From NCBI GenBank assembly GCA_964016885.1, contig OZ024750.1, forward strand, positions 51,336,001 to 51,400,000: DNA of 64,000 nucleotides, written 5' to 3'. This DNA is from Eledone cirrhosa. Taxonomy: Eukaryota. This document shows positions 3,453 to 4,088 of the stretch, piece after piece. The translations under genes and the position numbers were made by a program. Positions within the stretch are counted from its first letter, which is position 1. Each line of letters begins with the position of its first letter. Below the pieces are notes generated by a model. The model did not search any database and was not told the origin of the DNA. It saw nothing but the letters and a program-made list of their open reading frames with translations.

Positions 3453-4086
3453 CGGGATGTTTGTTTACAAACACACCGAGCATTATAATAAATGTTCGGT
3501 GAATCCATACGTTCTTTATATATGTGTGCATGTATGTATATATATATATATACTACTGTACATCTGTATACATATATGTATATACGTGTACATACTTATA
3601 TTTAAGTAACAGCCGTACTAAGAGTGGGAAATGAAATTTCGTTTCATTTTTTCCGTTTATCGTTTTCGGTGCACCCGGCCGATTAACCCTCTCAATATGC
3701 AAATTGGGCTACCCAGCCGTTAATATGCACAAGTTAAGTATATACTTTCAGACGTTCAACAATCTGGCAGGAAGGTATACGTTGCTGACGATAGCTAATA
3801 AGCTTGAAACTAGTACAGCGTTCCTTTGTCAGTGTTGAACAAGCGAGCAATGATGGTTGCTAGACACTACGGCTTAATACGGGATGTTTGTTTACAAACA
3901 CACCGAGCATTATAATAAATGTTCGGTGAATACATACGTACATATATATATATATGTGTGCATGTATGTATATATATATACATACTACTGTACGTCTGTA
4001 TACATATATGTATGTACGTGTACATACTTATATTTAAGTAACAGCCGTACTAAGAGTGGGAAATGAAATTTCGTTTCATTTTTTCC

Positions 4087-4088
<2 letters not shown>
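3453..4088 (+). mobile_element. Family F: ORF-less ~430-nt HHR-bearing unit, ~1.5 head-to-tail copies (retrozyme-like)
   Basis: 3453-3656 is repeated at 3880-4088. HHR at 3779-3821. Ends at (TA)n. Confidence 0.8.
3779..3821 (+). ncRNA. Minimal type I hammerhead ribozyme, intact core
   Basis: acgttg CTGACGA t agct aata agct t GAA ACTAGT A^ cagcgt: stem I, stem II, and palindromic stem III ACTAGT. Confidence 0.85.

Follow-up and report, generated by a model that had tools for sequence, protein, structure and literature searches.

Element F in the window and across the genome

The stretch of DNA analysed here (the window, 64 kb) harbors multiple copies of a non-coding repeat of ~430 nt, termed F, which carries a hammerhead-ribozyme (HHR) motif and sits in TA runs. 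Approximately ten F arms were counted at six sites, in line with an earlier note on this DNA that had put the number of pieces at seven or more, and three hammerhead cores are present. Insertion 1 comprises a 5'-truncated partial unit representing its first lap (3453..3656, plus strand, unit positions u224-432), followed by a full 432-nt unit (3657..4088, plus strand, u1-432), whose long site abuts a (TA)n target run 3' of the insertion at 4089..4157; unit numbering sets u1 at window position 3657. The partial unit is 95% identical to positions 3880-4088. Insertion 2 likewise joins a partial unit (11390..11482, plus strand) to a full 435-nt unit (11483..11918, plus strand, HHR core at 11611) with its long end on (TA)n, the two laps differing in subfamily state at u385-387 (TCA and AGT, respectively). 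As the earlier note had proposed, both insertions (3453-4088 and 11390-11918) exceed one unit, read through one common head-to-tail junction from different start points, and are independent of each other; their flanks differ and their identity is 87%.

The remaining sites hold inverted pairs and shorter pieces. A head-to-head inverted pair occupies both strands at 4859..5186, with its junction at a palindrome near u230; the minus arm (4997-4859) ends close to the short site, the plus arm (4980-5186) has the long end, and an extra F scrap lies beside the pair at 4816-4862. Two short 3' pieces with long ends are found on the minus strand at 12029..12313 (12145-12029 and 12313-12148), surrounded by TA runs, and a further one at 17304..17446 (plus strand) with its long end on (TA)n. 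An inverted pair on both strands at 48417..48838 is composed of a minus arm starting at 48725, which contains the third HHR (48654), and a plus arm (48740-48838) with a long end. The coding capacity of F is confined to short stop-to-stop frames, subfamilies differ by frame-breaking indels, and the RT plus GIY-YIG endonuclease ORF of autonomous EN+ PLEs is absent.

Several other elements neighbor these copies. Positions 2853-3452 (plus strand) contain a fragment of an abundant LINE, which we take from its motifs to be R4/Dong-like; copies of this LINE end in (CATA)n, and the fragment breaks off where it meets the 5' end of F. Short TA-flanked pieces at 14689 (-), 14807 (+), and 21929 (+), including an inverted pair at ~14480-14900, belong to a further type I hammerhead family, which may be a PLE pLTR or a second retrozyme. 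Hammerhead-like motifs of at least three more families were observed at 26193 (-), 15829 (+), 33699 (-), 5739 (-), and 4277 (-), the 15829/33699 type belonging to a second Neptune-type PLE present in loci L082 and L107. A 204-bp SINE-like unit occurs in three tandem copies at 30324-30948 (92% matches).

Searches of the 3.0-Gb genome (1,796 contigs) returned 24,001 exact matches to a 31-letter hammerhead-core pattern and none to the reversed control, dismissing a chance origin of the core; a 17-mer just 3' of the predicted cut matched 32,547 times compared with once for its control. F is thus real and abundant beyond chance. Copies were sampled from 30 best-hit loci, the loci of the first 100 core matches (contig C1), and those of the first 100 17-mer matches; the C1 sample favors an intact core but has no bias for ends. 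The head-to-tail junction is crossed by 63 of 124 de-duplicated chains, and at least twice by 11 of the 124. Full units range from 415 to 509 nt, arrays reach seven full units, and subfamilies diverge by up to ~16%. Upstream of u1, the 124 chains contain F tail and, as judged with one PLE query, no ORF; four of them begin at the first bases of the unit, the tail piece being left unresolved by the script. Six PLE protein matches, obtained in the sampled loci with one PLE query, are not joined to F. An accumulation of 5' ends (14 of 87 at risk) lies directly beyond the junction at u403-432 (window 4059-4088); a conserved hairpin in this interval may stall the RT and so give this excess.

Hammerhead motif and predicted fold of the F unit

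The type I hammerhead motif of insertion 1 lies at 3779..3821 (plus strand), with a 6-bp stem I, a core starting at 3785, and predicted cleavage at 3815/3816, which reproduces the site named in the earlier note. Stem I stays paired in all three window copies, as had been reported there (GTTG/CAGC, GATG/CATC, and GGTG/CATC; cores at 3785+, 11611+, and 48654-), and one of its pairs covaries among 96 copies (UG 60, GU 20, AU 12). The description of the HHR as intact holds for the catalytic core, but not for the adjoining helices: the 4 bp of stem II sit on top of a U.U pair (96 of 97 distinct copies), and in the same set of 97 a palindromic CUAG loop caps a stem III of just one A-U pair. At gathering score, an Rfam scan found nothing in the window, and at E<=10 none of the 79 matches within 3400-4400 was a hammerhead. 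The catalytic monomer fold is predicted at -1.4 kcal/mol, compared with -8.2 kcal/mol for the best fold of that stretch. Owing to the U.U pair and the 1-bp stem III, the F hammerhead probably needs a dimer for cleavage, and hammerheads with such motifs have been reported to work as dimers (available text of PMC4209133 and PMC7229834). From its sequence, we infer a type I ribozyme with putative cleavage activity. At least two hammerheads are held by 14 of 127 chains, most F insertions containing none or one. The window copies carry one hammerhead apiece and so lack two consecutive complete hammerheads; an “active” retrozyme in Li et al. has two or more successive units whose hammerheads are complete (accessible part of bioRxiv 10.64898/2026.07.22.740005).

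A consensus fold was predicted from 17 related units covering all subfamilies, with the TA hairpin omitted. It comprises 93 pairs, nine of them with two-sided changes; two-sided-change cells number 38 compared with 12.1 ± 2.9 after shuffling (reached in 0 of 500 shuffles), and the pair count was reached by 8 of 500 shuffles. Covariation supports a conserved F fold, short of proof, because the structure was derived from those same related sequences. In this prediction, an extended stem I (3754..3840, plus strand) of ~22 bp in four helices, with mostly invariant pairs and one showing a two-sided change, would hold both ends of a cleaved monomer. Helix Pa (strand 3687..3693, u31-37, plus) would pair with tail positions 4054-4060 or, across the junction, with the tail of the previous unit, and is C-G in one subfamily and U-A in others. 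Helix Pb (strand 3868..3874, u212-218, plus) would pair with tail positions 4043-4049 and includes two pairs with two-sided changes. Folded as a circle, the F unit reaches -130.6 kcal/mol (z -6.3), and its non-TA part alone, folded linear, gives z -3.8.

Paired 3' ends and the Neptune-type PLE

F has two 3' ends ~58 nt apart, both leading into (TA)n. They delimit an optional ~58-nt tail (4032..4088, plus strand) between a short end at ~4032-4036 and a long end at 4088 plus up to 4 nt. The identical end point that the earlier note had described is correct for insertions 1 and 2 but not for the family, where the 127 sampled chains divide into 57 with a long end (u420-436), 45 with a short one (u366-386), and 25 that end elsewhere. 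Among long ends, 70 of 80 are followed by TA, and among short ends 48 of 57 (118/137 together, drawn from all 168 chains); F ends lie inside these runs, which would mask any target-site duplications of >4 bp. Head-to-head inverted insertions combine a long with a short arm in 25 of 25 classifiable pairs (p 2e-8 vs independent pairing); 44 pairs were kept after removal of two duplicate rows and one chaining artefact, 19 of these having an unclassed end. Several inverted junctions fall at palindromes, e.g. u80, u229, and u365. PLEs carry their tail at just one end, have an inverted arm with palindromes at the junction, and target TA (available portions of PMC8557442 and PMC3846280), and for an anole PLE two RT start sites flank the tail in vitro (PMC11167929). 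The short and long ends of F are thus inferred to be a pair of RT start sites.

A PLE at 6034-8398 (plus strand) of the window is a 5'-truncated copy of a young, abundant Neptune-type family (150 scored matches at >=96%, best of 20,804 candidates). This copy has a hammerhead-like motif at 8155, and the family has three alternative ends into TA. For the PLE protein neighboring F, the closest atlas cluster is mostly of molluscan origin (11 members). The 4-kb element encodes a 1,217-aa ORF with an Asn-rich insert, full elements being found in locus L193, and occurs as tandem units with identical ORFs; a length beyond one unit, which had been put forward as a circular-template signature, is consequently not specific to such templates. 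Ends at 30 loci were classified as 14 short, 6 mid, 8 long, and 2 unclassed, and the long tail measures ~58 nt. Tailed and untailed arms are combined in 10 of 12 inverted pairs by script and in one more by eye; one of the 12 has an end outside the stretch, and none is of same type. As the combination of long and short ends in inverted pairs of F is also the rule of the Neptune-type PLE, we conclude with high confidence that a PLE enzyme moves retrozyme F. Four more Neptune families with a CX4CXXC linker also terminate in TA, and two of them have hammerheads built like that of F, with U.U and a palindromic tetraloop. Three classical Neptune families (L241-L290) contain hammerhead-like motifs that have CCGG as loop III and an altered core (UUGAUAA or UUGAAAA rather than CUGANGA) and would escape canonical descriptors.

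The view that F is just the pseudo-LTR of an ORF-bearing PLE has in its favor that every pLTR-type end feature is present in F and that Xenopus retrozymes match pLTRs (available text of bioRxiv 2026.07.22.740005), yet it is very unlikely, given that the 63 of 124 chains crossing the junction lead into further F and none enters an ORF. A pLTR-only sequence or a junction unique to this locus had been named beforehand by the earlier note as the outcome speaking against its proposal; the junction proved to be shared across the family, and none of the sampled copies is joined to an ORF. By blastn, F lacks similarity to the main Neptune-type family and its pLTR, a candidate sequence parent that was rejected on this ground, and to the terminal regions of 30 GIY-YIG loci (from 50 taken of 150 listed), bar one separate F insertion. 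T-rich tail similarity between F and Neptune is weak (best p 0.007 among 14 uncorrected tests). Where the base after the long end is changed (37 matches, 25 loci inspected), 21 loci continue as F, four run out into TA-rich or unrelated DNA, and no ORF opens at this point; matches with a longer stem II (66, judged from their listing) or another stem II sequence (5) are F mutants, chance matches, and two Neptune variants. No partner PLE family or sequence parent of F was found among the families compared, and the pseudo-LTR view is largely refuted, a rare ORF-bearing ancestor being possible. That F spreads as simple satellite DNA, or with a LINE like the R4-like one next to it, is equally improbable and largely refuted: although an R4-like fragment adjoins the F 5' end at 3452 and local duplication does occur, neither route accounts for inverted pairs in which a long end is combined with a short one, and 19 of 19 other R4-like loci run from the ORF into their own 3' UTR instead of F. 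With a different 3' end in all these loci, the R4-like LINE was rejected as owner of F, the fragment at 2853-3452 being unrelated flank. Features of a LINE-dependent SINE are likewise absent, as the window contains no tRNA gene and the F 3' end is not common with the adjacent R4-like LINE. Copy counts, ends, and inverted pairs rather bear out the earlier proposal of a non-autonomous element of the retrozyme kind that is targeted to (TA)n, copied beyond one unit, and moved by a PLE.

Template of F and relation to known systems

cDNA copies of F read through the cleavage site without a pile-up of 5' ends. Reading 100 sites just 3' of the cut by eye, 11 were flagged, comprising three indels and eight true 5' ends within u147-171, and 5' ends within 2 nt of the cut were found at 2 of the 100. 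Second-lap 5' ends near the cut amount to 2/38 and 1/36 at risk, and the sequence spanning the cut is intact in common haplotypes. With few 5' ends at the cut and low second-lap hazards, the end point is not usually a cleaved linear monomer; read-through fits a circle or an uncleaved multimer alike. Comparison of the partial with the next unit of one insertion revealed no subfamily-diagnostic difference in 18 of 25 cases, compared with 32 of 529 random pairs (497/529 differ), whereas 7/25 differ at diagnostic sites and 5/25 at two or more. Diagnostic differences total 14 within insertions vs ~6 expected and 18 between inverted arms vs ~9 expected, several of them in an unstable part of the alignment (columns 206-207). 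Insertion 2, left out of the 25 comparisons for its short overlap, carries different subfamily alleles in its laps (TCA, 8 loci; AGT, 23 loci) and is therefore not what a single lap of one monomer circle would produce. Rare variants shared within an insertion number 1.2-1.4 per kb, which is no excess over nearest-neighbour controls (1.1 per kb), so that a single template is not singled out. The units of array L087 are 0-1 changes apart; as a counterpoint to a circle, homogeneous arrays can also arise by later local duplication, as happened after insertion in L106. This period-2 array was discarded as a sign of a dimer circle, because private changes of the unit expected to match its 5' piece are missing from that piece, and the period-2 array L119 is ambiguous in this respect. 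Collectively, the DNA shows that the template is multimeric or circular and that some mixing occurs.

Template jumping occurs with target-primed RTs, and an RT that leaves a cleaved linear monomer at its 5' end and jumps to the 3' end of that monomer or of another one would account for mixed-allele insertions and for a conserved hammerhead; the lack of accumulated 5' ends at the cut and the intact sequence across it make such a template improbable. A stronger contender, although we place it below an even chance, is PLE-driven insertion from a linear, uncleaved multi-unit transcript, with circles, if any, as by-products. It accounts for read-through, mixed-allele insertions, and the weak hammerhead, the anole PLE used and preferred unprocessed RNA in vitro (PMC11167929), and the 4-kb Neptune-type element with its identical ORFs is tandem as well. 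However, daughter arrays would never be longer than their source and would need rebuilding by local duplication, the units of most insertions belong to one subfamily type, and the fixity of the core across subfamilies would be left unexplained (most sampled loci having been picked by that core). The reading we favor, for which the balance stands even, is that F may be copied mostly from circular RNA by a Neptune-type PLE enzyme, into (TA)n with two 3' ends. Its preference over an uncleaved multimer derives mainly from analogy with circle-making retrozymes: coral, mussel, and axolotl retrozymes produce circles, and one axolotl retrozyme has U.U (available text of PMC7229834). Speaking against a circle, eight of nine Xenopus retrozyme dimers showed no cleavage in vitro (accessible part of bioRxiv 2026.07.22.740005), and F chains with two or more hammerheads are few (14 of 127).

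Copying from a circle would begin with transcription of a locus holding at least two F units, of which two hammerheads would pair via their CUAG loops and excise a monomer. The long stem I would hold the monomer ends and a host ligase would close the circle, while the weak hammerhead core would prevent self-cleavage of a circle on its own. The structured tail would be bound by a dimeric PLE protein, which would nick both strands of a TA run; one cDNA would start at each of the two sites and proceed beyond one unit, and the cDNA ends would join one another, forming an inverted pair, or host DNA through microhomology. Template switches or two-unit templates would account for mixed-allele insertions. 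More tentatively, and with somewhat less than even confidence, we suggest that F is a protein-free RNA circle with a complete PLE docking site, both enzyme subunits reading one circle from sites 58 nt apart and rolling for more than one unit, and the weak hammerhead cutting in multimers only. If so, its ends would make F the first retrozyme with a legible insertion mechanism, and rolling-circle target-primed reverse transcription would have in F a minimal substrate.

In F, an element lacking an ORF, the PLE footprint is directly visible, and the same genome provides a positive control. F also supplies a 430-nt substrate, a covariation-supported predicted fold around the start sites, and natural insertions by the tens of thousands, which opens two questions to testing: whether circles are copied by PLE enzymes, and what purpose the hammerhead serves. 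New here are the two F ends ~58 nt apart and the long/short rule in inverted pairs; our literature search, with most subscription papers, Dfam, and Repbase outside its scope, found no paper on the F family or on paired ends in retrozymes.

On sequence grounds, F is assigned to the metazoan non-LTR retrozymes as a new member showing their testable features. In both, units of a few hundred bases that code for no protein and contain one type I hammerhead apiece are arranged in tandem; both occur in thousands of copies with a strongly self-paired fold, and coexist with PLEs in the same genome (available text of PMC7229834 and bioRxiv 10.64898/2026.07.22.740005). F differs in its PLE tail and paired-end rule, which the same portions of these two sources do not report for retrozymes. 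In the parts at hand of PMC7229834 and bioRxiv 2026.07.22.740005, co-occurrence and kinship with pLTRs are the grounds for naming PLEs as likely mobilisers, with the mechanism left open. In contrast to the model of Li et al., as far as its accessible text goes, no parent pLTR was found for F among the families compared. The U.U at the base of stem II resembles axolotl HHR_Amex2, and the 1-bp stem III with palindromic loop resembles axolotl HHR_Amex1 (available text of PMC7229834); unlike the known metazoan retrozymes described there, F unites both weak features in one ribozyme. EN+ Neptune-type PLEs share with F partial tandems, an inverted 5'-truncated arm, palindromic junctions, a one-end tail, (TA)n targets, and a hammerhead 5' of the 3' ends (available portions of PMC8557442 and PMC3846280), whereas F is devoid of an ORF. 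The F tail of ~58 nt matches the Neptune-type tails of this genome, compared with 30-40 bp for the PLE tails given in those portions of PMC8557442 and PMC3846280; in PLEs the tail is located at the ORF start, in F in a predicted multi-helix RNA structure.
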